Shown piece by piece: positions 1,194 to 18,751 of a stretch of DNA of 24,000 nt. This stretch comes from an uncultured archaeon (lineage in GTDB: Archaea > Nanobdellota > Nanobdellia > Pacearchaeales > GW2011-AR1): positions 296,214-320,213 of the forward strand of contig CAWJRC010000002.1 in NCBI GenBank assembly GCA_963845205.1, given 5' to 3'. A program made the position numbers and the translations under genes. Position 1 is the stretch's first letter, and each line of letters opens with the position of its first letter. Below the pieces are notes generated by a model. It was not told the DNA's origin. It ran no database searches and saw only the letters and a program-made list of their open reading frames with translations.

Positions 1194-1796
1194 TTATTTT
1201 TCAGCAACAAAAACTATATTCCTCTCTGGTTCTTCTTTTGAGGCTATTTTGAAGCCAACTTTTTCAAATAATTTGTAAATTTCATCCGCATCAAACAAAT
1301 AATAATACCTAGCTCCTTTATCTCGCCATTTTACAAGCCGTTCTTTTTTTCCATTTCTAAATTTTCTGCAATTTTTATTCCATACAGCAACATCAACCTG
1401 CGCTTTTGGTTTTAAAGTTCGGTAAAGTTCTTTCACAGCCTTTTCTCTATTCTTCTCTCCTTTAATGCAGTGCAAAACTGCTACAAAAATTGCTGCATCG
1501 AAAAAATTATCTCCAAAGGGGAGTTTTGTCAGATCAGAAACAGAAAATTCGGCATTTATTTTATTCTTTTTTGCCCGTTCTTTTGCAAGCTCGATCATCT
1601 TTTTTGAAAAATCAACTAGATACATTTTTCCCTGCGGAATCTTCTGCAGATGCCTTCCTGCACCGCTTCCCAAATCCAAAATATTTCCTTTTTTCCCCTT
1701 TAGAAATTCTTTAACATGAAAAGCAGGTTCTGTTTTGAATTCATACCATTCTTTTGCAATATTATTCCAAACCTGTTTCTGACTCAATGTTTTCAT
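1194..1796 (-). CDS. Class I SAM-dependent methyltransferase
   Basis: Motif I ILDLGSGAGRH, acidic residue after beta-2 (YLVDFS) and FDAAIFVAVLHCI are typical of the Methyltransf_11/25 fold. Confidence 0.85.
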   Translation of the reverse strand: MKTLSQKQVWNNIAKEWYEFKTEPAFHVKEFLKGKKGNILDLGSGAGRHLQKIPQGKMYLVDFSKKMIELAKERAKKNKINAEFSVSDLTKLPFGDNFFDAAIFVAVLHCIKGEKNREKAVKELYRTLKPKAQVDVAVWNKNCRKFRNGKKERLVKWRDKGARYYYLFDADEIYKLFEKVGFKIASKEEPERNIVFVAEK

Positions 1797-2334: not shown

Positions 2335-3627
2335 TTAAGATTCATTCTCATTAAATTTGATCAAAGAAAAAACAGGGTATTTTGAAAGTTTTTCTCTTCC
2401 TTTCAGTTCAGGAAGCTCTATGGGGAAACAGCACTCTACAATCTCCCCTTCTAATTTTTCAATTAACTTGCATGAAGCCAAAGCAGTTCCTCCTGTTGCA
2501 ATTAAATCGTCTATAAGAAGAATTTTCTGCCCCTTTGAAATTGCATCTTTATGAATCTCAACTTTGTCTGTTCCGTATTCTAAATCATAACTTTCTGAAA
2601 TTGTTTCTGCAGGAAGTTTTCCTGGTTTTCTGATTAAAACTAATCCTGTACCTAGCTTTCCGGCAAGCATTCCTGCAATAGCAAAACCTCTTGATTCAAT
2701 TCCTGCAACAGCATCGATCTGAAAATTTCTGTATCTTTCATAAAGTATTTCAATTAATTTCTGCAGCCCTTCCTTATCTTTTAATAAAGTTGTAATGTCC
2801 CTGAACATAATTCCCTGCTTAGGGAAGTCAGGAACTGTTCTTATTTTATCTTTCAATTTTGAAATTTCCTGCTCTCTTGAAAAAGAATCTATAACTTTCA
2901 GCAAAACTTTTTTTACTCTTTCAACATTTTCCCTCATGATCATTCTTATAACTTCCCAGCTTGCAGGTTCTTCATCTTCTTTCCAGCAGTCATAGTCTGT
3001 TGACATTGCAATAACTCCGTAAGGGACTTCTGCTTCATTTGCTAAAATGCATTCGGGGGCAATTGACATATTTATTACATCTGCTCCAAATTGCCTAAAC
3101 ATCTTGCTTTCCGCCTTTGTTGAGAATCTAGGACCTTCAATTGTTACAACTGTTCCTTTTTTATGATTAGAAAATTTTAATTCTTCACAAGATTCAATTA
3201 ATTTTTTTCTGAGAACTTCACAAAAAGGTTCTGGCATAGGCGTGTGAATAGGGCCGAATTCAAATTTTTCGAAGAAAGTTAATTTTCTCTGCTTTGTGAA
3301 ATCAATAAACTGGTCAAGGATCACAAAATCTCCACGCTTTATTTCTTCTTTAAGAGAACCTACTGCAGTTGTTGCAATAATATACTTACATCCTTCATTT
3401 TTTAATGCGAAAATATTCGCACGATTGTTAACTTGAGTTGGAGGAATTTCATGCTTAAATCCATGTCTTGAAAGAATTACAACATCAACTCCATTTATTT
3501 TTCCTGTTATTAATGGAGAAGAAGGTTTTCCAAAAGGGGTATCAACTTCTATTTGCTTAAAATCTGAAAGAATTTCGGGATTTTCAAGTCCAGAACCACC
3601 AATAATCCCCACTTTTAACTTCGCCAT
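2335..3627 (-). CDS. Bifunctional S-methyl-5'-thioadenosine phosphorylase / adenine phosphoribosyltransferase fusion
   Basis: N-terminal ~250 aa carry MTAP hallmarks: [71 protein letters not shown]-terminal ~170 aa carry APRT hallmarks: [49 protein letters not shown]. The two parts form one uninterrupted ORF. Confidence 0.9.
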
Positions 3628-4315: not shown

Positions 4316-5698
4316 ATGCTTCTCCCATCAAAAAATGAAGTAAGGAAGCCTACAAAAACAATCTCTGGAATTACTCCTGTAGCAGTTATGCTGCCTCCAA
4401 GAGAATGCAAGCACGGGACCTGCTTATACTGCCCCAGTCTGGATGTCCCGCAAAGCTATACTCCAAAAAGTCCTGTTGTTATGAGGGCAGCTGTAGTTAA
4501 TTACAATTCTTATGAACAGGTAAAAGCGAGAGTAAAAGCATTTGAGGCAATGCATCATCCGACAGAAAAGATTGAGCTAATAATTATGGGGGGAACTTTC
4601 CTTGAATACCCCAAAAATTTTCAGAACGATTTCATAAAAAATTGTTACGATGCACTTAACGGAAAAAAATCCAAAACTTTGGAAAAAGCTCAGAAATTAA
4701 ACGAGAAAGAAGAACATCGGTGTGTAGCTCTTTGCGTAGAAACCCGTCCAGATGAATGTATACAGTATATTCCAAGAATGAGAGAATTTGGGGTAACAAG
4801 AGTTGAACTTGGAGTTCAGATGCCTGACGATAAAATTTACAAAATGATAAAAAGAGGGCATAGTGTCAAAGATGTTGCAGACGCGACAAAAGCTCTGAAA
4901 GACGCAGGATTCAAGGTTGGTTATCATATTATGCCTGGCCTGCCTTCAAGCAATCCAAAAAAAGATTTGCAGCTATTCAAAAAGATATTTTCTGATGAGA
5001 GATTTAAGCCAGATCAATTAAAAATTTATCCATGCCAAGTTATCAAAGGTAGCGAATTAGAAAATGAATACTGGAAAAAGAGATACAAGCCTTATACAAA
5101 GGAGCAGATTGAAAAATTGCTTACAGAAATGTTGAAAGCTGTTCCGAGATATTGCAGAGTTATGAGGGTCATGAGAGAAATTCCGCCCGACTACTTGATT
5201 GCAGGAACAACAAGAATTGATCTGAGAAAAGATATTGAGAGAGATTTGAGAAAAAATAAAAGTGAAATTAAAGAAATCAGATTCAGGGAAATCGGATTCA
5301 ATAATAAAAATTTAAATCAGAATCTTAAATTAAAAATTACAAAATATAATGCATCTGAAGGAGATGAGTATTTTCTTGAAATTGTAAATGATGACGATGT
5401 TCTTTTTGGTTTGCTTAGATTAAGGATTATAAATGGAAAGGCGATTGTAAGAGAATTGCATGTTTATGGACAAAGTTTAAGATTAGGAGAAGAGGGAACA
5501 ATTTCACAACACAAAGGATTTGGAAAATGGCTTATGCTCGAAGCAGAAAAAATTGTCAGCGAAAACAAATGCAAGAAAATTTCAGTTATTTCCGGGATAG
5601 GTGTAAGGGAATATTACAAAGGTCTTGGATATAAATTGGAAGACAGCTATATGGTTAAAGAATTAAAACCAAAAGCCAGCATATCCCACAACGCTTGA
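4316..5698 (+). CDS. elp3: Elp3-family radical SAM / GNAT acetyltransferase (tRNA U34 cm5 modification)
   Basis: Cys cluster CKHGTCLYCP near the N-terminus. Radical SAM core motifs IIMGGTF, VALCVETRPD, GVTRVELGVQ. Elp3-type PGLP and LKIYPC. C-terminal GNAT motif QHKGFGKWLMLEAEKI. Confidence 0.85.
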   Translation: MLLPSKNEVRKPTKTISGITPVAVMLPPRECKHGTCLYCPSLDVPQSYTPKSPVVMRAAVVNYNSYEQVKARVKAFEAMHHPTEKIELIIMGGTFLEYPKNFQNDFIKNCYDALNGKKSKTLEKAQKLNEKEEHRCVALCVETRPDECIQYIPRMREFGVTRVELGVQMPDDKIYKMIKRGHSVKDVADATKALKDAGFKVGYHIMPGLPSSNPKKDLQLFKKIFSDERFKPDQLKIYPCQVIKGSELENEYWKKRYKPYTKEQIEKLLTEMLKAVPRYCRVMRVMREIPPDYLIAGTTRIDLRKDIERDLRKNKSEIKEIRFREIGFNNKNLNQNLKLKITKYNASEGDEYFLEIVNDDDVLFGLLRLRIINGKAIVRELHVYGQSLRLGEEGTISQHKGFGKWLMLEAEKIVSENKCKKISVISGIGVREYYKGLGYKLEDSYMVKELKPKASISHNA

Positions 5699-6412
5699 TT
5701 TGTCTTCTGTAACATCACCTGAATTTTTGTATTCTATTAATTTTGGCTTCCAGTTTTTTGTCTTGCATAAATGCATCATTATCATCAGAGGGAAAAAACC
5801 GCATGCATCAATTTTTTCAAAATTTTTGATATTAAGTTCTTCTATAAGTTTTATGGTTATTTTATCTTTTTTTACTGCGTTTTCATATGGAAGAAAATGA
5901 CTCAAATCTGTTGAGAAAATATATAAGGCCTTAATGTCCGAGATTTTTTCAGCAATCTCTTTAGCTTCTTCATCGGTTATTTCCCCTACCATCAAAGGCA
6001 TTATTTCTCTAATTCCTAATTTCTGTAAAAAAGGAATTTGGTTATTTATTGAATGCTCTTTTTCTATACCTTCAAATTTAAAATCCTTATTGAACAATTT
6101 AATTTTTCCGAGCGGAGTTTCAATCTGTTTTTTATTTGATGTTAAAACTCCATGAAGAGGGATGTAATGAGAAGGGCCAAGAACAATTGCTTTCTCTATT
6201 TTTTTATCTTTCAAAAGAGAAAAAGTTTTTCCCGCCACTTTTCCCGAAAATTCATATCCTGCATGGGGAACAATTAATCCGTGAATTTCTTTTGGACTTA
6301 TCTTGTTTTTTTGTGAGAGAAGTTCATCTAACTCTTTCATCAACTCTTTTTTATCTTCAGGATACCAATCCATAACAAAAATAGCATCATAAAGTTTATA
6401 GTTTTTTTGCAA
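5663..6412 (-). CDS. amrB: MEMO1-family protein (AmmeMemoRadiSam system protein B)
   Basis: WYPEDKKEL, GLIVPHAGYEFSG, LGPSHY and DLSHF motifs are typical of Memo. The track start at 6412 is a TTG; an in-frame ATG at the complement of 6371-6373 (MDWYPED...) is an equally plausible start. The 3' end overlaps elp3 by 36 nt (convergent). Confidence 0.85.
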   Translation of the reverse strand: MQKNYKLYDAIFVMDWYPEDKKELMKELDELLSQKNKISPKEIHGLIVPHAGYEFSGKVAGKTFSLLKDKKIEKAIVLGPSHYIPLHGVLTSNKKQIETPLGKIKLFNKDFKFEGIEKEHSINNQIPFLQKLGIREIMPLMVGEITDEEAKEIAEKISDIKALYIFSTDLSHFLPYENAVKKDKITIKLIEELNIKNFEKIDACGFFPLMIMMHLCKTKNWKPKLIEYKNSGDVTEDKSSVVGYAGFWF

Positions 6413-6450
6413 AAGATAAATCTTATAAATTCAGATGTGTATTTTTCTTT

Positions 6451-6990
6451 ATGAAAAAGAGGGGATTTGATCATTTTTACGAATCGACAGAAGATATACC
6501 TCTCGTGCTTGATTCTTATGAAGATATTTTTTCTGATTTTGATCCGCGTCCATATTCAGAAAGGGCGTTATCCGAAGATTTTCTTTTTGAATGCAAAAAG
6601 GCGGCTGTAGAAAAAAAAGGAAAAATCCATCTGAGATTATTCCTTCCAAAATCAAAAAGGCATCCCCTTGATGAAATAAAAATAAAGAAAAGATTAAAGG
6701 AACATTTTCACAAACATTTCCTAGAAAAAAAGAAGGACATAATGAGCACGAGACTGAATGGATTTACTTGGTCTGTTATTGGTTTTTGTATGATGTTTAC
6801 ATCTGCATTTTTTTGGGGGGAAGAAGGGCCTTTTGGAATTAATCTCCTAGTTACACTTGTCCAGCCAGCAGGATGGTTTTTTATGTGGGAAGGTTTGGCT
6901 AAAATTTTCATCGCACCAAAAGAACATATGCCTAATTATACTTTTTACAAAAAGATGGCAAATTCTACAGTTACTTTTGCAAATTATTAA
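6451..6990 (+). CDS. Hypothetical membrane protein (179 aa)
   Basis: Acidic soluble N-terminal half (DSYEDIFSDFDPRPYSERALSEDFL) and two or three hydrophobic helices in the C-terminal half. It sits between the Memo gene and the radical SAM gene. Confidence 0.6.
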   Translation: MKKRGFDHFYESTEDIPLVLDSYEDIFSDFDPRPYSERALSEDFLFECKKAAVEKKGKIHLRLFLPKSKRHPLDEIKIKKRLKEHFHKHFLEKKKDIMSTRLNGFTWSVIGFCMMFTSAFFWGEEGPFGINLLVTLVQPAGWFFMWEGLAKIFIAPKEHMPNYTFYKKMANSTVTFANY

Positions 6991-6994
6991 TAAA

Positions 6995-7855
6995 ATGAAA
7001 TTAGCAGAGTTGTACAAAAAAGAGAACGGAAAAATAAGATGTTTTGCCTGTGCGCAAAGATGTATGATTTCTGAAGGCAGAACCGGAATTTGTGGAGTAA
7101 GGAAAAATATTGGAAATAAATTATATCTCTTGGTTTACGGGAGAGTTGCTTCAATGAATATCGATCCCATTGAAAAAAAGCCATTATACAATTTTTTGCC
7201 GAACACATACAGTTTTTCTATAGGAACAATCGGATGCAATTTCAGATGCGATTTTTGCCAGAATTTTGAGATATCACAGGCCGGAAAAGAAGGGATGATT
7301 TTCGGTGAAAAAATCACCCCCAAAGAAATTGTTGAAAAGGCAATTCAGGCAAAATGCGAGAGCATATCTTATACTTATAACGAACCCGCAATTTTTATCG
7401 AATTTGTAAAAGACATTGCGAAAATTGCCAAAATGAAAAAACTGAAGAATGTTCTAGTCACAAATGGTTTTTTTACTAAGAAATCATTTGATTATATCTC
7501 GGATTATGTTGATGCTATGAACATTGACTTAAAATCTTTCAGCGAAGATTTTTACAGAAAAATTTGCGGTGCCAGATTAGAGCCTGTTCTTGATACAATA
7601 AAGATGGCGCATGAAAAAGGGATTCATATTGAACTTACGACTTTAGTAATTCCTGGTGAAAATGATTCTGAAAAAGAATTTGAAAAAATTGCGAAATTTA
7701 TTGCATCTGTAGATAAGAATATTCCTTGGCATATCTCTAGATTTTTTCCAATGTACAAAATGCTTGGCAAGGATATAACTCCCATTTCAACCTTGAAAAA
7801 GGCAGAAAAAATTGGTAAGAAATATTTAAATTACGTTTATGTCGGGAATGTATGA
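6995..7855 (+). CDS. amrS: AmmeMemoRadiSam system radical SAM enzyme (PflA-like activase fold)
   Basis: MKLAELYKKENGKIRCFACAQRC...GICGVR N-terminal Cys motif, then the radical SAM CNFRCDFCQN (CxxxCxxC). I moved the start from the track's 6857 to the in-frame ATG at 6995, because the first 46 codons overlap the preceding gene and look non-coding. Confidence 0.85.
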   Translation: MKLAELYKKENGKIRCFACAQRCMISEGRTGICGVRKNIGNKLYLLVYGRVASMNIDPIEKKPLYNFLPNTYSFSIGTIGCNFRCDFCQNFEISQAGKEGMIFGEKITPKEIVEKAIQAKCESISYTYNEPAIFIEFVKDIAKIAKMKKLKNVLVTNGFFTKKSFDYISDYVDAMNIDLKSFSEDFYRKICGARLEPVLDTIKMAHEKGIHIELTTLVIPGENDSEKEFEKIAKFIASVDKNIPWHISRFFPMYKMLGKDITPISTLKKAEKIGKKYLNYVYVGNV

Positions 7856-8391
7856 TGAAGAAATATAATGAACTCTTGAAACTTAGCCGAAATGCAATTG
7901 AATCTAAACTAGACAATAAACAATTGAAGATTTCAGAAACTATAAAGAAGAAATATTCTGAAAAAAAAGCAAGTTTTGTTACGCTAACTGAGCATGGCGA
8001 ACTAAGGGGGTGTATTGGAAGTCTGTATCTACGGCAAGAATTGTATAAAGACGTTTCTGAAAATGCAATTCATTCAGCATTTGATGATCCGAGATTTACT
8101 ACTCTAGACAAAAATGAATTATCCAAGATAAAAATAGAAGTTTCTGTTCTATCTGTTCCTGAAAAAATTAATTTTAAAAATGAAACTGAACTCCTGAAAA
8201 AAATTGACAGAAAAATGGGACTGATCTTGGAAAATGGATATAATTCCGCAACCTTTCTCCCACAGGTTTGGGAGCAGATTTCTGATAAAGTTGATTTTTT
8301 AGAAGAACTTTCAATGAAAGCAGGTTTAGGAAAAGATGCATGGAAAAATTCTGAGATTTATTTCTATAGGGTTGAAAACGTAAAAGAATAA
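7852..8391 (+). CDS. amrA: AMMECR1 domain protein (AmmeMemoRadiSam system protein A)
   Basis: FVTLTEHGELRGCIGS...AIHSAFDDPRF and ATFLPQVWE motifs. ATGA start/stop overlap with amrS. Confidence 0.85.
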   Translation: MMKKYNELLKLSRNAIESKLDNKQLKISETIKKKYSEKKASFVTLTEHGELRGCIGSLYLRQELYKDVSENAIHSAFDDPRFTTLDKNELSKIKIEVSVLSVPEKINFKNETELLKKIDRKMGLILENGYNSATFLPQVWEQISDKVDFLEELSMKAGLGKDAWKNSEIYFYRVENVKE

Positions 8392-8495
8392 TCTTGTATG
8401 GGCCCGTCCGAGTATTTAGAAAACAATGGTCTTACTCATAAAAAATTGTAAAATTAAATAGAAAAGATTAAGAAATTAATTCACTTGTATTTCTT

Positions 8496-8789
8496 ATGAA
8501 AAAAATATGGATATTTGTCATTATTTTCGGCTTTCTTATAATCTTATTTAGTGTTCTATTAGGAAAACCAAATAGTATAAGTCTTACTCCTACCTTCCCA
8601 TTTATTTCTCTAAGTTGGAGTTCTCCTCCCAGTTCTGTTTATACTAATAACAATGAAACATCTAAAGGAATAGTAGCTAATGGAGGAAGTAATATTTATA
8701 TCGGAAATAATACCATTGTCGGATTTGATATAGGAATTGATGCTGAAAATGTCACTAATCTAACTACTGTAAATAATAACATTAAATAA
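8496..8789 (+). CDS. Short membrane-anchored hypothetical protein, possibly the remnant of a beta-helix surface protein
   Basis: N-terminal TM/signal segment (MKKIWIFVIIFGFLIILFSVLL), then NIYIGNNTIVGFDIGIDAENVTNLTTVNNNI, which resembles one or two parallel beta-helix turns. At 97 aa it may be truncated. Confidence 0.35.
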   Translation: MKKIWIFVIIFGFLIILFSVLLGKPNSISLTPTFPFISLSWSSPPSSVYTNNNETSKGIVANGGSNIYIGNNTIVGFDIGIDAENVTNLTTVNNNIK

Positions 8790-8832
8790 ATTTTAGTTTT
8801 ACAAATAATTAAAATTACCCCCTAATTCTTAA

Positions 8833-8905
8833 TGCCCCGTCCGGGATTCGAACCCGGGTTTCAGCCTTGAAAGGGATGTGTCCTTGGCCTCTAGACTAAC
8901 GGGGC
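8833..8905 (-). tRNA. tRNA-Glu (anticodon UUC), 73 nt, no encoded CCA
   Basis: Hand fold of the reverse complement: GCCCCGT TA GTCT AGAGGCCAA GGAC A CATCC CTTTCAA GGCTG AAAC CCGGG TTCGAAT CCCGG ACGGGGC A. The acceptor and T stems are perfect; the anticodon stem has one T-C mismatch. Confidence 0.85.
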
Positions 8906-8932
8906 AATAATAATTAAAACAGAGAAAAATAG

Positions 8933-8941
8933 TTTTTAAAG
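8933..8941 (-). promoter_or_regulatory. TATA-like box upstream of tRNA-Glu
   Basis: The minus strand reads CTTTAAAAA about 28-36 nt upstream of tRNA position 1, which fits archaeal TATA spacing. The AT-rich background makes this weak evidence. Confidence 0.3.
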
Positions 8942-8956
8942 CTTTATTAGATAGTT

Positions 8957-8968
8957 TTTTAAATAAAA
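8957..8968 (+). promoter_or_regulatory. TATA-like box upstream of the sigma-factor gene (implies a leaderless or very short leader mRNA)
   Basis: TTTTAAATAAAA is centred about 23 nt upstream of the ATG at 8985. No Shine-Dalgarno-like purine run lies between them. Confidence 0.25.
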
Positions 8969-8984
8969 TTTTTCGTCTTTATTT

Positions 8985-9821
8985 ATGTCAAAAATTAATA
9001 GGAATAACAATAATTTAATCAAGATTTATTTGAAAGAAATAGGCAAATATCCTCTTTTAACTCATGATGAAGAAATAGAATTAGGCAAAGCAAAAGAAAA
9101 TAACAAAGAAGCTTCTCAAAAATTAATAAATTCTAATCTGAGGTTAGTTGTAAGTATAGCAAAATATTATCAAAGAAGAGGACTTCCTTTGGAAGATTTA
9201 ATCTCGGAAGGAAATACTGGACTTATGGCTGCAGTTGAAAAATATGATTATAGTAAGGGTTATCGATTCGCATCTTATGCTGTTTGGGACATAAAACAAA
9301 AAATTTTGAAAGCACTTGCAGAACAACCAAAAGGCATAAAGATTCCTTTTAATAAACTATGTGACTTATCAAAAATTAATAAACTTCTTTACAATAAAGA
9401 TCCCTCGAAATTGGGAAATATAGAACAAATAGCAAAAACACTTAATATTGAACCTGAGTTTGTTAGCTATCTTCTTAAGATCTCAAAAGAAACTATTTCT
9501 CTTGATCTCCCTGTTGAAAGTGATTTTGGAGAGCAAAATCTTTTGGAGGATAAGATCTCTCAACAACCTGCGGAATCAGCAATAAACAATTATTTGAAAG
9601 ACGATATCAACAATGTACTTAAGGATCTTTCCCCAGAAGAAATGGATATTATAGAAAAAAGATTTGGCCTTAATGGAAATTACCCCCATACACTGGAGGA
9701 TATTGGCAAAGAATACGATCTAACAAAAGAGAGGATAAGGCAGATTGAAGAAAAGGGGTTAAGAAAATTAAAAAGCGATACTTTTGTTAAGGAAAAATTA
9801 ATTTCTTATTTAGAAGAATAA
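8985..9821 (+). CDS. Sigma-70 family RNA polymerase sigma factor (regions 1.2, 2, 3 and 4 present)
   Basis: Region 1.2: [22 protein letters not shown]. Region 2: [57 protein letters not shown]. Region 4.2 HTH: [28 protein letters not shown]. Confidence 0.85.
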
Positions 9822-9836
9822 AGATAAGGGGATATT

Positions 9837-9873
9837 CAAAAGATTCATTTTTTGAAGTCTTTTGAAGTTTTTT
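9837..9873 (+). terminator. Weak A/U-rich hairpin plus oligo-T tracts downstream of the sigma-factor gene
   Basis: CAAAAGATTCA (9837-9847) pairs with TGAAGTCTTTTG (9853-9864) with one bulge and loop TTTTT, followed by T6 at 9868-9873. The oligo-T tracts alone could act as an archaeal terminator. Confidence 0.3.
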
Positions 9874-9952
9874 CCTTCATAATCTGCACTTCAATTTTTT
9901 CTAATTTTGAATATTTAACATTAACTTTTGGATATATAATCCAAAAAGAAAA

Positions 9953-10075
9953 TGAGCCTACACGGATTTGAACCGTGGACCCCCGCCTCTCTTAGATTTT
10001 TCTAACGAGAGAGTCAATTCTAACGAATTGAAATCATATAAGAGCGGTGCTCTGACCAGGCTGAGCTATAGGCTC
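9953..10075 (-). tRNA. tRNA-Ile (anticodon UAU) with a 48-nt canonical intron
   Basis: Hand fold: GAGCCTA TA GCTC AGCCTGGTCA GAGC A CCGCT CTTATA[intron]A GGCGG GGGTC CACGG TTCAAAT CCGTG TAGGCTC A. The acceptor, D and T stems are fully Watson-Crick paired; the anticodon stem closes with one G-T wobble (T31-G39). The anticodon TAT lies at 10040-10038. The + ORF 9968..10165 is a shadow of this gene. Confidence 0.85.
9989..10036 (-). other. Archaeal bulge-helix-bulge tRNA intron at position 37/38
   Basis: Exon C32-T33-T34-A35 pairs with intron TAAG (central 4-bp helix). 3-nt bulges TA|T and AG|A carry the two splice sites. Intron 5' GATTT pairs with intron 3' AAATC (inner helix). The anticodon stem forms the outer helix. 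Confidence 0.8.
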
Positions 10076-10102
10076 GTTTACATTCATTTAGCTAATTTTA
10101 AC

Positions 10103-10111
10103 TATTTAAAA
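10103..10111 (-). promoter_or_regulatory. TATA-like box upstream of tRNA-Ile
   Basis: The minus strand reads TTTTAAATA about 28-36 nt upstream of tRNA position 1. Confidence 0.3.
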
Positions 10112-10132
10112 TTTCTTATTCATCCGACAAAA

Positions 10133-10142
10133 TTTATAAATA
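10133..10142 (+). promoter_or_regulatory. TATA-like box upstream of the large surface-protein gene
   Basis: TTTATAAATA is centred about 25 nt upstream of the ATG at 10162, consistent with a leaderless transcript. Confidence 0.3.
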
Positions 10143-10161
10143 TACAAACACTGAGATTACA

Positions 10162-13100
10162 ATGAAAAAGAAGGGGGGAATTTTCTTATCTATTTTGATA
10201 TCAATTCTTATTCTTAATTTTGCATCTGCTGCAATCGGAAATTCTTTACACCTAAATATTCAGACGATAAATTCAACAGGAGGGGTGATTACAGGAACAT
10301 TTAACTTTGGTTTTAACATTTCCACTACAAGTGATTGTAATGCTACAAATGTTGTTTATGCAAATGCTTCAACTCTTACAACAGACTCACGAGGGATAAT
10401 TTCTTATTATTTAGACAATGTAAACATTAATTTTTATAGCCAATATTACTGGCTTTGTTATTACAGGAACGGGGTTTTGATAAATTCTTCAAAAATTGTA
10501 GGAATTCCTTATTCTCTTGCTTCTCAAAATACAACTTTAAGCGGTGTAAAGGTTGATAGCAATTTAGTTATGGGAACTTACAATATAACTTCTTCCTGGT
10601 TCTTTGGACTTTTTTCCTGGCTTGTAAACAATGATGTATCTCAAAATTATTTATCATTTAACGGTTCAACTTTAAGCTTTAATGAAACAAAATTAAATAA
10701 TACAATCGATAATATAGCAGCTGTTTTTGGGAATGCCTCTTGGAATCAAAGTTTTGCAAATACATTATATGCAACTATTGGAACTACTAGTGGAAACTTA
10801 TCTTGGAATCAATCATTTGCTAATGGATTGTATGCACCAAATACCACTGCTGGTATTCAATACTTGATTAACTCAACAGGAATTTATTCACAAGGGGGGA
10901 ATGCCTCTTGGAATCAAAGTTTTGCAAATACATTATATGCAACTATTGGAACTACTAGTGGAAACTTATCTTGGAATCAATCATTTGCTAATGGATTGTA
11001 TGCACCAAATACCACTGCTGGTATTCAATACTTGATTAACTCAACAGGAATTTATTCACAAGGGGGGAATGCCTCTTGGAATCAAAGTTTTGCAAATACA
11101 TTATATGCAACTATTGGAACTACTAGTGGAAACTTATCTTGGAATCAATCATTTGCTAATGGATTGTATGCACCAAATACTACAGCAGGGATACAATTTC
11201 TGATTAATGGAACAAATGTGAATTTCTTAAATGTTAATGCAAGTGGAGAAACGATAAATGGAAATTTGACTGCAACTAATTTTATAGGAAACGGGGCATA
11301 CCTTACGGGGATAAGTGGAGGTAGTTCATTCCCTTGGATTAATAGTACAAGTTATGTTCAATTAAACTCTTCTGCAATTCAAGCACTTAATGTTTCTAAT
11401 TTCTTGTTTGTAAATTCAACTAATGTTGGAATAAATGTAACTAGTCCAATATATGAATTACAATTAGGAAATGCAGGAAATGCATTGAATGTTTCAGGAG
11501 TTTTGTATGTTAATTCAACGAGCGGATTTGTTGGGATAAATCAAACAAGTCCGAGTTCATTGTTAGATGTTGGAGGGTCAAGTGGGCAAATTGCACAATT
11601 TGGTGATGCTGGAGGTTTATCCAATCAAAATTATATAACTATAGGGGGAAGCGCCATGTTTGGGTATGATGGAACAACAGATGATGCAGCAATTCAGGGA
11701 ATTTCCGGGAAAGGTATAGAATTTAATGTAGGCAATACTACTTTTGGAGCTAGCAGTTCAACAGCAATGGTAATAACATCTGGGGGGGATATCGGTATTA
11801 ATACAACGAGTCCGACAAATGAATTAGATGTTGGCGGCACAGGAGTTTCTGGAGCGGCTATCTATGGAAATGGAAGTAATCTTCCTTACGCTGTTGGGGT
11901 TTATGGAAGGGGAGATAGTAATATTGGGGTTGAAGGTGTTGGTAGTACTGGAGTTTGGGGAATTGGTAGCATTGGAGTTCAAGGTAGTGGAACTAGCTAT
12001 GGGGTTTATGCCAATGGTGCAGGTGCTTATGATTTCTATGCTGCAAATGCTACAGGAGAAAGTTACTTTGCGGGGAAAATAGGAATAAACGTGAGCAGTC
12101 CAATCTCTTTATTAAGCATAAATGATGCTGGAAATTCTTCATCAAGTTTGTATTCTTACAACGGCCAAACTGGTGGTATAGGAATTTTTGCAAATTCTTC
12201 AAATGCTGGGGGTGTGGGAATATATTCTTACGGCGGAGACAAAGGAGTATTAAGCTATGGAACGAATTATGATTTTTATGGAGGAAATCCTTCGGCATCA
12301 AATTATTTTGCAGGAAATGTAGGTATTGGTAGTGCTACAAGTCCGGTTGCTCCTTTAGATATTTATAATGGGGCGGATCATTTAGCATTATCTGTAGGAT
12401 TAATAAATTCTACAAGAGGTACTAATGGAATGTGGATAACTTCTAGTGCAGATATAAAATTAATTACAGATCAAGCTAAAACGGGTTCATTTGCTGATGT
12501 AGGATTTTATTATCAAAATTCAACAAATCCTAGAATTTATTTTAGAACAAATGGAGATTCTTATTTTAATACTAGCGGAAATGTAGGAATAGGAACAACA
12601 AGTCCAATATCGACATTAAGTGTAGGGGGGAATGGACTTTCTAATGCAGAAATTTATGGTTCTTATAGTTCTGCAGTAGGGGGAGGTTATGGTGTTTATG
12701 GAACCAGTTCTGGTACTGGTGTTCAAGGAATTACCACTGGGAATACTTCTGTTAATTTTGGGGGAAATTTCAGTGCTCCCAACGGAAATTATGCAGAAAT
12801 GGCAACAGGAAATGGTTATGGAATTATTGCAAAATCATCTGGGAGTGCTTATGGGGTTTATACTAATTCATTATATGTTACAACAGGACCTTCACACATT
12901 GAAGGAACACTTTACGTTGCAGGAGGATATGGGAATATTCAATCTGGAGATGTTGCAGAAGATTTGCAGACAATAGCAGGAAGAAATGCAGCATTATGTG
13001 CAGGAAATGTGTCATGTATGGTTAATGATTACAAAAAAGAAGACTTGTCTTATGGGGATGTTGTCTGCATTAATCCAAATTACGGTGAGACAATAATGCT

Positions 13101-13404
13101 CTGCAATGAATCTGATTCAGAATTAGTCGCAGGAGTAGTATCAAATACTTCAACAATAGATATGGGAAGTAATATCTCATTTTCTTATCCAATTGCAGTT
13201 GCAGGAATTGTTTACACAAAGGTTCTTGCAGGAAGCGAAGGAATAAAGCCTGGAGACTTATTAGTTTCAAGTTCTGTTCCGGGATATGCAATGAAAGCCC
13301 CTGCAAACTGGACAGAAGGGACAATATTGGGAAAGGCTTATGATTTCTGCGACACAAGATATTATACTAACTGCACAATACCTATGTTTGTTGCATTAGA
13401 ATAA
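10162..13404 (+). CDS. Large secreted, sequon-rich surface protein (putative S-layer / adhesin-like glycoprotein, tail-fibre-like repeats)
   Basis: Signal peptide MKKKGGIFLSILISILILNFASA. About 56 N-X-S/T sequons by hand count. Six copies of a [VI]GI[GN]xxSPxxxLx[VI] motif (for example VGIGTTSPISTLSVGG). Gly/Ser/Asn/Tyr-rich composition. Distinct Cys-containing C-terminal ~170 aa. Confidence 0.85.
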   Translation: MKKKGGIFLSILISILILNFASAAIGNSLHLNIQTINSTGGVITGTFNFGFNISTTSDCNATNVVYANASTLTTDSRGIISYYLDNVNINFYSQYYWLCYYRNGVLINSSKIVGIPYSLASQNTTLSGVKVDSNLVMGTYNITSSWFFGLFSWLVNNDVSQNYLSFNGSTLSFNETKLNNTIDNIAAVFGNASWNQSFANTLYATIGTTSGNLSWNQSFANGLYAPNTTAGIQYLINSTGIYSQGGNASWNQSFANTLYATIGTTSGNLSWNQSFANGLYAPNTTAGIQYLINSTGIYSQGGNASWNQSFANTLYATIGTTSGNLSWNQSFANGLYAPNTTAGIQFLINGTNVNFLNVNASGETINGNLTATNFIGNGAYLTGISGGSSFPWINSTSYVQLNSSAIQALNVSNFLFVNSTNVGINVTSPIYELQLGNAGNALNVSGVLYVNSTSGFVGINQTSPSSLLDVGGSSGQIAQFGDAGGLSNQNYITIGGSAMFGYDGTTDDAAIQGISGKGIEFNVGNTTFGASSSTAMVITSGGDIGINTTSPTNELDVGGTGVSGAAIYGNGSNLPYAVGVYGRGDSNIGVEGVGSTGVWGIGSIGVQGSGTSYGVYANGAGAYDFYAANATGESYFAGKIGINVSSPISLLSINDAGNSSSSLYSYNGQTGGIGIFANSSNAGGVGIYSYGGDKGVLSYGTNYDFYGGNPSASNYFAGNVGIGSATSPVAPLDIYNGADHLALSVGLINSTRGTNGMWITSSADIKLITDQAKTGSFADVGFYYQNSTNPRIYFRTNGDSYFNTSGNVGIGTTSPISTLSVGGNGLSNAEIYGSYSSAVGGGYGVYGTSSGTGVQGITTGNTSVNFGGNFSAPNGNYAEMATGNGYGIIAKSSGSAYGVYTNSLYVTTGPSHIEGTLYVAGGYGNIQSGDVAEDLQTIAGRNAALCAGNVSCMVNDYKKEDLSYGDVVCINPNYGETIMLCNESDSELVAGVVSNTSTIDMGSNISFSYPIAVAGIVYTKVLAGSEGIKPGDLLVSSSVPGYAMKAPANWTEGTILGKAYDFCDTRYYTNCTIPMFVALE
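10731..11234 (+). repeat. 3 x 168-bp in-frame tandem repeat inside the surface-protein gene
   Basis: Unit starts (gaatgcctcttgg...) at 10731, 10899 and 11067. Units 1 and 2 are identical by eye over all 168 bp. Unit 3 is identical for about 113 bp, then diverges. Each unit encodes 56 aa: NASWNQSFANTLYATIGTTSGNLSWNQSFANGLYAPNTTAGIQYLINSTGIYSQGG. Confidence 0.9.
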
Positions 13405-14072: not shown

Positions 14073-15605
14073 ATGAGTTTCAAAAGAATGAAGACTGTAA
14101 AAATCTTCTTAGCCCTCTTGTTAATATTAATCTCCGGATTTTTTATTTATGGGGTTCATTACAGTTATTCTGGGATTATACAGGACCCGCACAGCAATCC
14201 TGTTTTTTTAAATGTCACAAATCTTAATTACCCCTTTCCGGTTCATGCAGATGAATGGACTCATCTGGGGCAGATAATTTATATTATCAACAGCAAGACA
14301 TTAGGATTTGTCAATCCCTATTCCCCTAGTTTAACAAACAACAATGAGCTGGAAGTTGGTTTTAATCTATTTCTTGCATTATTTTTCATAATCACAACTT
14401 TGAATCCTGTCCTGAGTTATCAATTCCTCCCGGCAATTTTTTTCATGATCAATGCAACTTTACTTTTCTTTTTCGTCAAAAAACTGACTAAGAATTATTA
14501 TATTGCATTATTTTCCATCTTATTTTTTCTAGCAATTCCAAGCAATATAAATTTTTTGGGAAACTGGTTTGCTGTCCCTTTAACTTTCAGCATATTTTCA
14601 ATTTATCTTTTTTTTATCTGCCTAATTGATTTTATAGAGACCAAAAAGAAAAAATATCTTGCAGGTACAATTATTTCTTATGCAGTTTCATTATGTTATC
14701 CTGTAGCAACTGTATTCATAACAGCAATCGCATTTTTTTATATCATTTCAGAAAGAGATATTTACAACAAATTAAAAAAATATAAAATCCCTTTAATATT
14801 GTTGTCTTTGTTTCTTATCGCGGCTTTAATCTTCTTAATGAATCATTTTTCTTTTTTGATATTCCCAGCTGGCTGGACGTCTGATCAATACAACTATTCT
14901 TTGATATTTTTTTACGGAATCTTGCCTACATTATTTGCATTTATCGGAGTCTATTTCGTTTTGGATAAAAAGTTTAACCGGATATTCCTTATATGGCCTG
15001 CGGTATGTCTGATCAGCCTTTTTATATTCAAAATTTTTGGAATAAGCTTTTTTATCCCCTATGAAAGAACAATGTATTACTATCTCCTAGGGCTTGTTCC
15101 ATTGGCTGCGACAGGATTTTTTTATATTCTCAAATCCCTGTACGATTTAATAGCAAAGAGAATTCCAAGGAACAAGAAAAAATTTTATTTAATCATTATA
15201 ATTATCATCACATTATTAATGTCCTTTTTTATCCTGAGAAATTATTATTCTGTTGGCGAAGACAACTTTGCAGTCATGCACTTAATTGAAAAGCAGGATT
15301 ATGACGCAATAAAATTTATTGGAGATAATTACGGAAAAGGTAAAATAGTCCTAGCAGACAATCTTATTTCAACAGCTATTTATCCAATCAGCCAGGATTA
15401 TGTTGTCGGAATTTTGAGTTCTAATCTGGGGGACGGGAATCTTACGTTAGCAGATGATTTTTTTATGGGCGATTGCGGGGATAAAGAGGAAATAATAAAT
15501 GATTATAAAGTCGATTTAGTTCTTTCAAGATTTGAGATGAATTGTGACTCTTTAAAAGAAGTCTATGATAAAGAAGGAGATTATGTTTATGAAGCTGAAA
15601 AATGA
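14073..15605 (+). CDS. Polytopic membrane protein, putative GT-C-fold glycosyltransferase (PMT/ArnT/GtrC-like)
   Basis: More than 10 hydrophobic helices. Acidic HADEW motif in the first external loop after TM1. Soluble C-terminal ~120 aa. No WWDYG motif, so not an obvious AglB/STT3. I prefer the ATG at 14073 over the track's TTG at 14052. Confidence 0.65.
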   Translation: MSFKRMKTVKIFLALLLILISGFFIYGVHYSYSGIIQDPHSNPVFLNVTNLNYPFPVHADEWTHLGQIIYIINSKTLGFVNPYSPSLTNNNELEVGFNLFLALFFIITTLNPVLSYQFLPAIFFMINATLLFFFVKKLTKNYYIALFSILFFLAIPSNINFLGNWFAVPLTFSIFSIYLFFICLIDFIETKKKKYLAGTIISYAVSLCYPVATVFITAIAFFYIISERDIYNKLKKYKIPLILLSLFLIAALIFLMNHFSFLIFPAGWTSDQYNYSLIFFYGILPTLFAFIGVYFVLDKKFNRIFLIWPAVCLISLFIFKIFGISFFIPYERTMYYYLLGLVPLAATGFFYILKSLYDLIAKRIPRNKKKFYLIIIIIITLLMSFFILRNYYSVGEDNFAVMHLIEKQDYDAIKFIGDNYGKGKIVLADNLISTAIYPISQDYVVGILSSNLGDGNLTLADDFFMGDCGDKEEIINDYKVDLVLSRFEMNCDSLKEVYDKEGDYVYEAEK

Positions 15606-16626
15606 AAAAATATCCGTGATACTTCCTTGCAGAAATGAAGAAAAAACAGTCGGAATCTGTATTGGAAGAATAAAAGAAGCATTAAAAGAAAAAAATTATG
15701 AGATAATAGTCTCAGATTCTTCAACAGACAAAAGCGCAGAAATCGCTAAAAAATTAGGGGTACAGGTTGTCAAGCATAATAAAGAAGGATATGGGAATGC
15801 ATGCCTTGAAGGTTTTAAGCATGCAAAAGGGGATATTGTAGTCTTTGGAGATGCGGACAATACTTATGATTTTTCTGAAATTCCTAAACTTTTGGAATAC
15901 ATCGGAGAATATGACTTAGTTTTGGGAAAAAGAAAATTTATACAGAAAGGATCAATGCCTTTCTCACATAGATATATTGGTAATCCCATTCTTTCATTCA
16001 CTTCTAGATTATTTTTTAAAACAAATGTAAAAGATATAAACACAGGATTCAGGGCCATAAAAAAAGAAAGTTTTGAAAAACTTAATCTTAAAACAACAGG
16101 CATGGAATTTGCGTCAGAAATGATAATAATGGCTGTAAAAAATGGACTTAAAATTAAAGAAGTTCCTGTGCATTATTATAAACGGGAAGGAAATTCCAAA
16201 CTGCGCACGTTCAAGGATGGGTGGAGGCATTTCCGATTTATGCTTTTGTACAGTCCGTTATTTTTATTTTTTATTCCAGGACTGATTTTATTTCTCCTTT
16301 CCATAATTTTTTTATTTTATAATATTTTATTTTCTGCTTTGTTTGTAATAATTGGATATCAACTGATTATTTTTGCATTATTTACAAAAACTTATGCTAT
16401 AACTCATTTTGGGGATAAGCCAATTTTAAATCCATTTTATAAATATCTTTCAATAGAAAGTGCTAGCATTACCGGATTACTGATTATCCTTCTGGGAATC
16501 ATCGCTTATTTTTTAATAGGTACTAATAAAACTGAAAGCGCAATCTTCGCTTTTATGTTCGTAATCATAGGAATTCAAACAATTTTTTCATCCTTCATGC
16601 TAAGCATATTGGGGATTAAGAAATGA
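15589..16626 (+). CDS. GT2 family glycosyltransferase, polyprenyl/dolichyl-phosphate sugar synthase-like, with C-terminal TM helices
   Basis: ISVILPCRNEE, IIVSDSSTD and GDADNTYD (DxD) motifs, RAIKKE, then three or four hydrophobic helices. GGAGA at 15576-15580 favours the ATG at 15589 (alternatives at 15583 and 15565). Overlaps the upstream gene. Confidence 0.85.
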   Translation: MKLKNEKISVILPCRNEEKTVGICIGRIKEALKEKNYEIIVSDSSTDKSAEIAKKLGVQVVKHNKEGYGNACLEGFKHAKGDIVVFGDADNTYDFSEIPKLLEYIGEYDLVLGKRKFIQKGSMPFSHRYIGNPILSFTSRLFFKTNVKDINTGFRAIKKESFEKLNLKTTGMEFASEMIIMAVKNGLKIKEVPVHYYKREGNSKLRTFKDGWRHFRFMLLYSPLFLFFIPGLILFLLSIIFLFYNILFSALFVIIGYQLIIFALFTKTYAITHFGDKPILNPFYKYLSIESASITGLLIILLGIIAYFLIGTNKTESAIFAFMFVIIGIQTIFSSFMLSILGIKK

Positions 16627-17669
16627 AAAAAATAAAACAGATAGGTATGACAAATAAAAAATTTGCACTTGAGTTATACGCGAAGATTACAAATAAAAGA
16701 TTTTTCTGTAGAGTGTTGAGGGATGATTCTTTGTACAACACTGTTATTAATTCGGATTTGACTGTTTCCTGTAACTGCAATGATGATTATGGATTAGGAA
16801 GAATCGGCGATTTTAAAAATCAGAGTTTAGAAGAAATATTTTTAGGAGAAAAAGCAAATAAGTTTAGAAAATCTCTTGCGAAGGGGAAGTTGCCAATAAT
16901 AAATTGTGCTGTCTGTTCAGATTTATGTTTTACAAATAAGAAAGAAGCTGAAAGGTATATGGATCATCTTAGTATTCCCAAAGGTATAATGATAGAAAAC
17001 ACTGTAAACTGTAATCTAAATTGCCTTAGTTGTAATAGGGAAAAGATTTATTCTTTAAGAAGTAAAAGAAATATGTCATTAGAGGACATGAAAAAAATTT
17101 CTCTTGAGATAAAAAAAAGAAAAATAAAACAGATCTCATATTTTAATCTTGGAGAACCATTTTTATCAAAAGATATTAAAAAGGAATTGGAAATTATCAG
17201 AAAAGACAACCCTCATATTGTTATCAATATTTCCACTAATGGAGGGGCATTAGATTCAAAAGAAAAAAGAGAAGCGGCGTTATTTTCTGATAAGGTTATT
17301 TTTTCTATTGATGGCTCTACACAGGAATCCCTAGCCAAATATCAGAAAGGAGGAGATTTTAATAAAGCATATTCCAATATGAAATCTCTTGTAAAATTAA
17401 GAGATCTTCTCAGAAAGAAAAAGCCAGTAATAATATGGAAATATCTTTTATTTAAATGGAATGATAATGAAAAATTAATTTCATATGCAATAAAATTAGC
17501 CAAAGAGGCAAAAATAGATCAGATATATTTTGAAAAAACATTATCACCCCCTTTGTGTGTGTCTTATAAACATTATATTGGTAGGGGGTATTTGAATAAA
17601 ATTTCAAAATTTAATGGAAAGATATGCACAATTTCTCTAGAAAATAAAAAAATACCCGGATCAAAATGA
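16623..17669 (+). CDS. Radical SAM protein with an N-terminal SPASM-like Cys-rich region
   Basis: CNLNCLSC (CxxxCxxC), YFNLGEPFL, ISTNGG and SIDG core motifs. The upstream ~105 aa contain SCNCN...GRIGDFKNQSLEEIF...NCAVCSDLC. ATGA overlap with the GT2 gene. Confidence 0.8.
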   Translation: MKKIKQIGMTNKKFALELYAKITNKRFFCRVLRDDSLYNTVINSDLTVSCNCNDDYGLGRIGDFKNQSLEEIFLGEKANKFRKSLAKGKLPIINCAVCSDLCFTNKKEAERYMDHLSIPKGIMIENTVNCNLNCLSCNREKIYSLRSKRNMSLEDMKKISLEIKKRKIKQISYFNLGEPFLSKDIKKELEIIRKDNPHIVINISTNGGALDSKEKREAALFSDKVIFSIDGSTQESLAKYQKGGDFNKAYSNMKSLVKLRDLLRKKKPVIIWKYLLFKWNDNEKLISYAIKLAKEAKIDQIYFEKTLSPPLCVSYKHYIGRGYLNKISKFNGKICTISLENKKIPGSK

Positions 17670-18751
17670 AAATCGCAATATTTCATAACTATATGGATAA
17701 TATCGGAGGAGCAGAAATGGTTACATTAACATTAGCTAGAGAATTAAAGGCAGATGTCTATTCCACTAATATAGATAGAGATAAAATAAAAAAAATGGGA
17801 TTTGAAGATGTAAATTTAATTTCAATAGGCAAAATTCCCCTTGATGCTCCTTCTAGACAGCAACTTGCGTTATACAGGTTTAGAAGATTAAGTCTGAAAA
17901 ATAAGTATGACTTTTATATAATCTCTGGGGACTGGGCTGTTTCCGCGGCTGTTAATAACCAACCGACTATTTACTATATGCATTCACCGATAAGGGAACT
18001 TTGGGATTTATATGGAGAAGTGCGGAAATCCATTGTTCCATTACGTAACCGCTTTATATTTGATTCATGGGCTTTATATAATCGTTATTTAAATAAAAAA
18101 TATATAAACAAAATTGATAAAATAGTCTGCAATTCTGAAAATACAAAAAAAAGGCTCAACCATTTTCTTCATCGTGATGCTGAAGTTATCTACCCTCCTA
18201 TATACACTAAAAAATTTCATTATAAAAAAAATGGAAATTTCTGGCTTTCTGTCAATCGTCTTTTAAATAATAAGCAAGTTGATATGCAAATTGAAGCTTT
18301 CAAAAAATTGCCGGATGAAAAATTAATTATTGTAGGAAGTTATGAGACAGGAGCAGCACATTTTAGGAAATATGTAAATCATATCAATAAAATTAAGCCT
18401 TCAAATGTCGAAATTTTGCATTGGATTGATTTTAAAAAATTAGTTGAGTTATATTCTAATTGTAAAGGATTTATTACCACAGCAAAAGATGAAGATTTTG
18501 GGATGACTGCTGTTGAAGCAATGGCTTCAGGAAAGCCTGTAATCGCTCCAAATGAGGGGGGATATAAAGAAAGTATTATTGATGGAAAAACAGGAATATT
18601 AATACAGAATATTGATGCTGATAGATTAGCTGAAGCAATTGAAAAAATCGGAAAAAATCCGAAGAAATTTAAAAATGCCTGTTTAAGACAGGCAAAAAAA
18701 TTTGACACAAAAGAATTCATAAAAAAAATTAAAGAAGTTATCCAAGAATGA
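17666..18751 (+). CDS. GT4 (GT-B fold) glycosyltransferase
   Basis: EDFGMTAVEAMASGKPVIAPNEGGYKESIIDGKTGIL contains the EX7E motif. ATGA overlap upstream. Confidence 0.85.
   Translation: MKIAIFHNYMDNIGGAEMVTLTLARELKADVYSTNIDRDKIKKMGFEDVNLISIGKIPLDAPSRQQLALYRFRRLSLKNKYDFYIISGDWAVSAAVNNQPTIYYMHSPIRELWDLYGEVRKSIVPLRNRFIFDSWALYNRYLNKKYINKIDKIVCNSENTKKRLNHFLHRDAEVIYPPIYTKKFHYKKNGNFWLSVNRLLNNKQVDMQIEAFKKLPDEKLIIVGSYETGAAHFRKYVNHINKIKPSNVEILHWIDFKKLVELYSNCKGFITTAKDEDFGMTAVEAMASGKPVIAPNEGGYKESIIDGKTGILIQNIDADRLAEAIEKIGKNPKKFKNACLRQAKKFDTKEFIKKIKEVIQE

Follow-up and report, generated by a model that had tools for sequence, protein, structure and literature searches.

A bacterial-origin sigma-70-family gene kept in a fixed tRNA slot of Nanoarchaeia (DPANN) genomes

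Sigma factors on the one side, and the TATA-binding protein (TBP) and transcription factor B (TFB) on the other, are the textbook markers that split bacterial from archaeal and eukaryotic transcription. Here we describe a sigma-70-family gene, P0001, carried by a 24,000-nt stretch of DNA from an uncultured archaeon (hereafter the window, whose flanks of up to 10 kb were also read). That sigma-70 genes occur in DPANN archaea has already been published: Castelle et al. 2021 (PMC8204110) described such genes (family fam00359), prevalent in Woesearchaeota, excluded mis-binning as their source, did not find anti-sigma factors, reported that TBP, TFB and TFE co-occur with them, and called the mechanism unclear. 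Like P0001, the fam00359 genes are found in small-genome DPANN of the Woesearchaeota/Pacearchaeota (Nanoarchaeia) group without a nearby anti-sigma factor, and P0001 is a candidate member of that family. More recently, rpoS-like genes were described in predicted DPANN viruses (PMC12647753, 2025), and a review (PMC7289017) treats TFB and TBP as analogous to sigma in polymerase positioning and promoter opening. No experimental study of any archaeal sigma factor was found in the literature searched. P0001 adds one case of this unexplained phenomenon; what goes beyond the published paragraph is a fixed tRNA slot, vertical descent with at least two losses, a putatively leaderless promoter on every copy, a four- to sixfold acceleration with a dN/dS (ratio of nonsynonymous to synonymous substitution rates) of about 0.45, and an apparent erosion of the tryptophan dyad set against conservation of the docking surface.

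The original prediction, made from the sequence of the window, had claimed a full four-region sigma-70 protein. The profile search agrees, with all four Pfam models scoring above their gathering threshold (GA):

8985-9821, + strand: sigma-70-family gene P0001, ATG start, 278 aa, regions 1.2 to 4.2
9018-9101, + strand: region 1.2 (aa 12-39), Pfam PF00140, Sigma70_r1_2, 46.0 bits (GA 22)
9123-9323, + strand: region 2 (aa 47-113), Pfam PF04542, Sigma70_r2, 62.7 bits (GA 24)
9420-9575, + strand: region 3 (aa 146-197), Pfam PF04539, Sigma70_r3, 29.0 bits (GA 25.3), a weak score
9615-9773, + strand: region 4 (aa 211-263), Pfam PF04545, Sigma70_r4, 58.0 bits (GA 24.1)

Region 4 holds the helix-turn-helix TKERIRQIE, of the type that reads the -35 element. 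Among the NCBIfam models, P0001 passes the superfamily model TIGR02937 (98.3 against a cut-off of 42.9), and its nearest models are RpoD and RpoS, both well under their equivalog cut-offs (a best score of 258.6 against 555 for RpoD, and 225.3 against 378.7 for RpoS), so that it is a member of neither equivalog. As the RpoD model matched over its C-terminal part only, region 1.1 and the non-conserved insert are absent and the protein begins at region 1.2. The AlphaFold2 model of P0001 has the all-helical sigma2-sigma3-sigma4 fold, with a mean predicted local distance difference test score (pLDDT) of 77.4 (above 90 in domain 2, 73-93 in domain 4, and below 50 in the region 3.2 linker, aa 169-192, which is predicted to be disordered). 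The closest solved structure is C. difficile SigA (7l7b_F, E=1.2e-59, residues 11-276), with B. subtilis SigA also close, and the top 50 Foldseek matches in the PDB were all SigA, RpoD or RpoS chains, nearly all of them from holoenzymes, at a probability of 1.00. P0001 is a sigma-70-family gene of bacterial origin, of the RpoD/RpoS type and without region 1.1. It also matches phrog_351, a phage sigma family. The sole PADLOC match, MzaA (the sigma of the MZA anti-phage system, with a model of about 700 aa), was rejected, given that the score of 218.1 against 800 comes from the sigma portion alone and reflects the common sigma domain.

Outside the archaeal copies, the closest sequences come from Spirochaetota, sigma factors about 290 aa long with 47-52% identity over the full length. 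These proteins (among them P0003, P0005, P0012 and P0253, annotated as RpoD/SigA) share with P0001 the layout of regions 1.2-4.2 without 1.1, as well as the DLISEGN and ILKA variants. They differ in that they stand among two-component systems, sigma-54 activators and GroES in plainly bacterial settings, keep the WWIRQ motif, and remain much nearer to their own consensus (mean identity 0.86, against 0.45-0.55 for the archaeal copies). In the bacterial locus that bears P0005 (L003), two paralogous sigma factors of about 290 aa lie 4.5 kb apart (2576-3448 and 8001-8888), which implies that this type of sigma was already duplicated in the putative donor group. With SigA of C. difficile and B. subtilis and with E. 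coli RpoD and RpoS, P0001 shares the folds, the residues of region 2.2 that bind the core and the helix-turn-helix for the -35 element; compared with these solved proteins it has W434D and a short, divergent region 3.2, it lacks region 1.1, and its host has no known bacterial core enzyme (positions E407, N409, M413, W433, W434 and Q437 follow E. coli sigma-70 numbering). Viral sigma factors, including those of the predicted DPANN viruses (PMC12647753), likewise stand outside a standard bacterial chromosome, and the phrog_351 match recalls them; P0001 differs from them in being chromosomal, following the host tree and having no viral gene context, and its viral relatives are at most 41% identical. 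With TFB and TBP, P0001 has no detectable sequence kinship, and the genes of the window use TATA promoters, which need TBP and TFB.

In the window, the gene sits behind a TATA box and between two tRNA genes, one of which has a bulge-helix-bulge (BHB) intron:

8832-8906, - strand: tRNA-Glu(UUC), upstream edge of the conserved slot
8956-8965, + strand: archaeal TATA box TTTTTAAATA, 20-29 nt upstream of the sigma ATG
9953-10075, - strand: tRNA-Ile(UAU), 123 nt with BHB intron, Rfam tRNA score 54.5 bits, downstream edge of the slot
9989-10036, - strand: tRNA-Ile intron, 48 nt, position 37/38, bulge-helix-bulge geometry

The archaeal context that the original prediction had drawn from this tRNA-Ile is confirmed by the exact BHB motif at position 37/38. 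The motif comprises a central helix CUUA/UAAG (from C32-A35), the bulges UAU and AGA, each split after its second letter, and a 5-bp outer helix GAUUU/AAAUC, which is the arrangement of archaeal BHB introns (position 37/38, a 4-bp helix and two 3-nt bulges). It is not the minimum-energy fold (-12.2 versus -20.7 kcal/mol); four orthologous tRNAs with differing intron sequences nevertheless retain the central helix and both 3-nt bulges. The orthologous loci of relatives carry the ribosomal proteins L7Ae, S28e and L24e together with a threonyl-tRNA synthetase (ThrRS) that has an archaeal editing domain. An Elp3 protein 84% identical to that of the window is labelled 'uncultured archaeon', and the sigma copy of locus L016 (P0251) bears the NCBI name RNA polymerase sigma factor RpoD/SigA [Candidatus Nanoarchaeia archaeon]. 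The contig that holds the gene is an archaeal one from DPANN, not a mis-binned bacterial one, and P0001 is resident in a Nanoarchaeia (DPANN) genome. It is also as AT-rich as its surroundings, as had been stated at the outset, with a GC content of 0.300 against 0.314 for the window and a GC content at third codon positions (GC3) of 0.219, within the range of its neighbours (0.19-0.31); since its composition matches that of its neighbours, a recent insertion is excluded. No anti-sigma factor, core polymerase subunit or defence partner was present near the sigma gene.

The contig itself is sound. Two Logan assemblies from other sequencing runs match it at 99.93% over 9,981 nt and at 100% over 6,393 nt, the latter covering window positions 4366-10758 and with them AMMECR1, the tRNA-Glu, the sigma gene, the tRNA-Ile and the start of a surface protein. 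With the junctions reproduced in two independent assemblies and an orthologue in the same place elsewhere, the chimeric contig that the original prediction had named as a danger to its claim is excluded. The window, L001 and L002 are 99.93-100% identical and thus too alike to power polymorphism-based selection tests. In L001, the 99.93%-identical Logan assembly, a 200-aa methyltransferase gene is broken into ORFs (open reading frames) of 134 and 78 aa (2209-2812, window 1194-1796), as a frameshift variant or an assembly error.

To place the gene among its relatives, we used the conserved Elp3 as an anchor, which retrieved six related loci. A sigma gene between tRNA-Glu and the intron-bearing tRNA-Ile is found in the window and in L014 (P0250, 276 aa), L016 (P0251, 274 aa) and L167 (295 aa), while the two tRNA genes are adjacent, without a sigma gene, in L015, L165 and L166. 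A fifth copy, P0002, is 57% identical to P0001 and lies in another context on a 1.7-kb contig of 26.5% GC, with its TATA box still at -29. In a tree of concatenated host proteins (Elp3, the PNP-PRT fusion described below and the methyltransferase), the loci fall into the pairs L014 and L016 (100% bootstrap), L015 and L165 (99.5%) and L166 and L167 (98.5%), so that the three empty slots among paired lineages require at least two losses. A single gene in the common ancestor and these later losses make up the simplest history. The sigma gene was acquired before the sampled relatives split, was inherited vertically in a fixed tRNA slot and was deleted in at least two lineages. In the phylogeny of the sigma proteins themselves, L014 and L016 are sisters just as in the host-protein tree; neighbour-joining failed to unite the archaeal copies or to fix the donor, the four archaeal copies forming one clade in 0 of 100 bootstraps and each falling nearest to the slowly evolving spirochaete-like group. 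Because of the synteny, we read this failure as a long-branch artefact of rate; it probably is one, and the tree by itself does not prove a single acquisition. We are highly confident of the identity and evolutionary history of the gene as a whole.

Wider searches added little to this set. A scan of metagenomes yielded 80 loci, among which archaeal tRNA flanks occurred only in L092, of the L014 lineage, and seven other low-GC metagenome loci that we inspected were bacterial, with GroES and PPDK as neighbours. No additional archaeal copies were found among 1.84 billion representative proteins, and the top extra matches (P0320-P0324) were discarded as assembly artefacts with internal duplications. 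Among the GTDB representative genomes, the search with P0001 gave H. pylori rpoD, a gammaproteobacterial fragment and nothing else, and the scan of viral contigs gave nothing closer to P0001 than 41% identity.

The tRNA genes of the slot have features of their own. The tRNA-Glu(UUC) of the window is intronless, as it is in L015, L165 and L167, and that of L014 (11783-11900) and L016 (11733-11871) has an intron after the anticodon, of 45 and 66 nt, respectively; as intron presence differs between near relatives, these introns were gained or lost. In the window tRNA-Glu, a U-C mismatch interrupts the anticodon stem (CATCC/GGCTG, against the fully paired CAGCC/GGCTG of L014, L015 and L016), and the Rfam score of this tRNA is 59 bits, compared with about 68 in L015, L165 and L167. 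The AUA-decoding tRNA-Ile of the window (9953-10075, - strand) has the anticodon UAU and is not of the agmatidine-modified CAU type, which is typical of most archaea; the UAU type recalls Nanoarchaeum and Korarchaeum. ARAGORN missed the intron-bearing tRNA-Ile and mislabelled the intron-bearing tRNA-Glu of relatives as tRNA-Gln and tRNA-Leu, and tRNA calls were taken from Rfam.

The expression signals of the sigma gene also look archaeal. A box TTTTAAAT begins 27-29 nt before the sigma ATG, and no Shine-Dalgarno sequence is present upstream. When the 25 genes of the window and three related loci (L014, L015 and L016) were counted, 19 had a TTTWWAW box with its start between -36 and -26, in almost every case from -29 to -27 (background 5%); a TATA box at -29 precedes all five archaeal sigma copies. 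The TATA-like box and the missing Shine-Dalgarno sequence of the original prediction are verified, and the box recurs across the lineage at the same distance. This regular TATA spacing, together with the lack of Shine-Dalgarno sequences, suggests that the transcripts of the lineage are mostly leaderless. The sigma gene carries the host's own archaeal TATA promoter and, as the position of the box implies, would be transcribed without a leader. Promoter matches of the sigma-70 type were not enriched, with 89 in 20 kb of the window compared with 92 +/- 11 in shuffles. The top match, TTGTCA-16-TATAAT (11/12; 8515-8542, + strand), lies within a 97-aa ORF just upstream of the tRNA-Glu and is probably due to chance, because such matches are not enriched overall.

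The sigma gene evolves faster than the genes around it. Identity to the window copy is 49% in L014 and 44% in L016, compared with 65-87% for the genes upstream of sigma. By the Nei-Gojobori method, for which dS is near saturation and the ratios are approximate, sigma has a dN of 0.46-0.48, a dS of about 1.0-1.1 and a dN/dS of 0.42-0.50; the corresponding values are 0.08-0.17, about 0.8-2.4 and 0.06-0.13 for Elp3, PNP-PRT and the methyltransferase, and 0.12-0.28, about 1.1-1.4 and 0.10-0.20 for a 167-aa hypothetical protein. The dN of sigma thus exceeds that of neighbouring genes by a factor of 4-6. A set of 324 bacterial relatives, picked by similarity to the query and so favouring canonical sequences, shares 62 conserved positions; the archaeal copies deviate at 5-13 of these (P0001 at 8), compared with a median of 0 and a 95th percentile of 7 in the bacteria. 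All five sigma ORFs (274-295 codons) are free of stops and frameshifts. Five intact ORFs at a dS of about 1, with a dN/dS of 0.42-0.50, are not the product of neutral evolution, and open ORFs in a genome of 30% GC, 44 residues that are invariant in all five copies and a fixed promoter box indicate that the gene is under selection. This selection is purifying but weak, weaker than on a bacterial sigma, and the gene is dispensable in some lineages.

Conservation is unevenly distributed along the protein. Among the five archaeal copies, conservation is highest in regions 2.1 and 2.2 (pairwise identity 0.62 and 0.69), where 18 of the 44 invariant residues lie, a regional pattern that with n=5 sequences is suggestive and statistically insecure; bacterial sigmas likewise conserve region 2 best. 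The core-binding residues E407, N409 and M413 of region 2.2 are present as E75, N77 and M81 in P0001, and within the segment aa 71-81 the residues D71, L72, I73, G76, N77, G79 and L80 are the same in all five copies at the sequence level. The pattern is different in the segment that reads the -10 element, YAVWDIKQ (aa 98-105 of P0001), where one substitution stands out:

9285-9290, + strand: codons for W101-D102, equivalent of the W433-W434 dyad, second Trp replaced by Asp (W434D), read from the sequence

In bacteria, the W433-W434 dyad secures the upstream edge of the transcription bubble, melting and reading the -10 element. The W434 site, conserved in at least 90% of bacterial relatives, deviates in P0001, which keeps W433 and Q437 but lacks the complete dyad of region 2.3-2.4. 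The other copies vary: WWIRQ is found in P0250 and P0251, S-Y with Q437G in P0002, and W-R in L167. The original prediction had proposed altered -10 or core-binding chemistry, of which the former part stands and the latter does not. The WDIKQ change is confined to the sub-lineage of the window and would affect only the -10 chemistry, with the core-binding chemistry apparently unaltered, as region 2.2 is unchanged. Elsewhere, the -35-reading helix K-E-R-I-R-Q is kept in four of the five archaeal copies, region 4.2 of L167 has diverged beneath Pfam detection, the region 3.2 finger of P0001 is short and divergent, and pairwise identity in region 3 falls to 0.20-0.28 among the archaeal copies. Taken together, this suggests that the DNA-reading residues erode while conservation centres on the core-docking surface.

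As to what such a protein does in an archaeon, all three roles proposed in the original prediction, namely a helix-turn-helix regulator, a factor for a host polymerase and a relic of transfer, are live hypotheses. We tentatively favour the view that P0001 is a retained, non-essential accessory regulator that acts inside the archaeon, with its sigma domain 2 bound to a partner resembling the clamp helices. In bacteria, sigma domain 2 clamps the beta-prime coiled-coil, to which the clamp coiled-coil of archaeal Rpo1N is structurally equivalent, and the archaeal coiled-coil is the site used by TFE and Spt4/5. The protein would be a working one that is not an obligatory initiation factor; its domain 2 (regions 2.1-2.2), the part best kept by selection, would dock on the partner, most plausibly the clamp coiled-coil that Rpo1N forms in the archaeal polymerase. 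DNA contacts, free to drift, would come from the helix-turn-helix of region 4 and what is left of region 2.3-2.4. Given the fast evolution, the lost promoter-melting residues and the repeated deletion, such a role is accessory at best. In favour of an action inside the archaeon, we count the lack of enrichment of bacterial-type promoters and the TATA box on all five copies, the finding that DPANN genomes with sigma-70 genes encode TBP, TFB and TFE (PMC8204110), and the rpoS-like genes of DPANN viruses, which would act within the DPANN cell (PMC12647753).

Several points weigh against this accessory-regulator reading. The partner is a proposed one, and binding to the archaeal polymerase or to DNA is putative. 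The four-domain layout and its spacing are what a bacterial core requires, and a free regulator might shed domains. Three further observations would fit decay just as well, namely that sigma is the fastest-evolving gene of the neighbourhood (44-49% against 65-87% identity), that the archaeal copies depart from 62 near-universal sigma positions at 5-13 of them (bacterial median 0), and that L015, L165 and L166 no longer have the gene in the slot. Finally, the absence of bacterial rpoA, rpoB and rpoC rests on the literature, the portion of this genome that was read being 24 kb.

Alternatively, P0001 might be a true sigma for a foreign bacterial-type core, either as an effector that redirects the polymerase of a bacterial host or partner in the style of a phage sigma or, with even less likelihood, as the partner of a genome-encoded bacterial core. 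The retention of four sigma regions in order and spacing, the strongest conservation in the beta-prime-binding residues of region 2.2 and the K-E-R-I-R-Q helix intact in four of five copies would all be expected of such a protein, as would rapid evolution with repeated loss, which is typical of host-interaction genes; peptidoglycan-degrading genes are near by in relatives (SLT in L014 and L166, Hydrolase_2 in L015), and small-genome Pacearchaeota and Woesearchaeota with large lytic-transglycosylase proteins have been suggested to be bacterial episymbionts (PMC8204110). However, P0001 bears neither a signal peptide nor a known export tag, the lineage has no known bacterial host, three of the five copies have a disrupted dyad (W434D; W433S/W434Y; W434R), L167 region 4.2 is beneath Pfam detection, and the rpoS-like genes of DPANN viruses argue for action within the DPANN cell (PMC12647753), so that we consider an effector unlikely. 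A relic of an old horizontal transfer, in slow decay and without a current role, would explain why the dN is 4-6 times that of the neighbours, why the deviations of P0001, at 8 of the 62 near-universal positions, exceed the 95th percentile of the bacteria (7), why the slot is empty in three related lineages and why some copies show erosion of region 4.2 and of the region 3.2 finger. It fits poorly with ORFs of 274-295 codons that have stayed intact in five lineages at a dS of about 1 or more, as neutral sequence at 30% GC would close quickly, and with a dN/dS below 1, a promoter box held at the exact host distance and 44 invariant residues concentrated in regions 2.1-2.2. We regard pure decay as improbable.

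Cargo of a mobile element or a prophage remnant integrated at a tRNA gene could account for the two flanking tRNA genes and for the presence/absence polymorphism among relatives, and both the rpoS-like genes of DPANN viruses (PMC12647753) and the phrog_351 match point in this direction. Yet the gene stands alone without an integrase, and neither att-like direct repeats nor duplicated tRNA ends were found around it, the only repeats being short, AT-rich and attributable to chance. Moreover, its best viral-contig relatives, at 41% identity, are no nearer than bacterial ones, L014 and L016 are sisters in the sigma and host-protein trees alike, and its base composition is that of the host, all of which makes this reading of the gene very improbable. 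For an assembly chimera or bacterial contamination nothing was found in favour; the identical junctions in two independent assemblies, the syntenic orthologues on other archaeal contigs (L014, L016 and L167), and the archaeal promoter and host composition of the gene leave it a negligible probability.

The remainder of the window and the neighbourhoods of its relatives provide further observations. Downstream of the slot, at 10162-13404 (+ strand), lies a predicted surface protein of 1080 aa with an N-terminal hydrophobic signal, very many N-x-S/T sequons and three tandem repeats of about 57 aa (…ASWNQSFANTLYATIGTTSGNLSWNQSFANGLYAPNTTAGIQYLINSTGIYSQGGN…), without a convincing Pfam match; large proteins also occupy the equivalent place after sigma in L014 and L167. 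Further on, at 15565-23834 (+ strand), lies a cluster of glycosyltransferase genes whose stop and start codons overlap; it includes tandem GT8 paralogues (19731-23834), three identified by Pfam and two more inferred from repeats, four of which have the hairpin CCTGAACCATTTCAGG at an equivalent internal position (19883, 20890, 21927 and 22952). Upstream, between Elp3 and the tRNA-Glu, positions 5663-8391 hold an AmmeMemoRadiSam trio (Memo on the - strand, the radical SAM activase and AMMECR1) with a 179-aa ORF of unknown nature within it. The trio is also found in L166 and partly in L165, and is absent at the equivalent position in L014, L015, L016 and L167. The PNP-PRT gene, at 2335-3627 (- strand), encodes a 430-aa fusion of PNP_UDP_1 and a phosphoribosyltransferase (PRT) that is 83-87% conserved in relatives; the gene called in its place in L016 encodes the PRT alone (193 aa). 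Next to ThrRS, relatives carry SLT (L014, 1-443; L166, 1-180) or the cell-wall Hydrolase_2 (L015, 2697-3440), and these peptidoglycan-degrading enzymes fit the published idea of an archaeal interaction with bacteria.

A sigma factor that has long been kept in an archaeon without a known bacterial polymerase poses a testable question, namely what the ligand of sigma domain 2 is. Either sigma has been adopted into archaeal transcription, with domain 2 on the clamp coiled-coil as a natural hybrid, or it is passed to the polymerase of a bacterial host, a pair of outcomes that we put forward as doubtful. If the partner is the clamp of the archaeal polymerase, the docking site for initiation factors would prove compatible across domains. 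If it is instead the polymerase of a bacterial host, P0001 would provide the first evidence at the level of an effector that bacteria are parasitised by some DPANN archaea.

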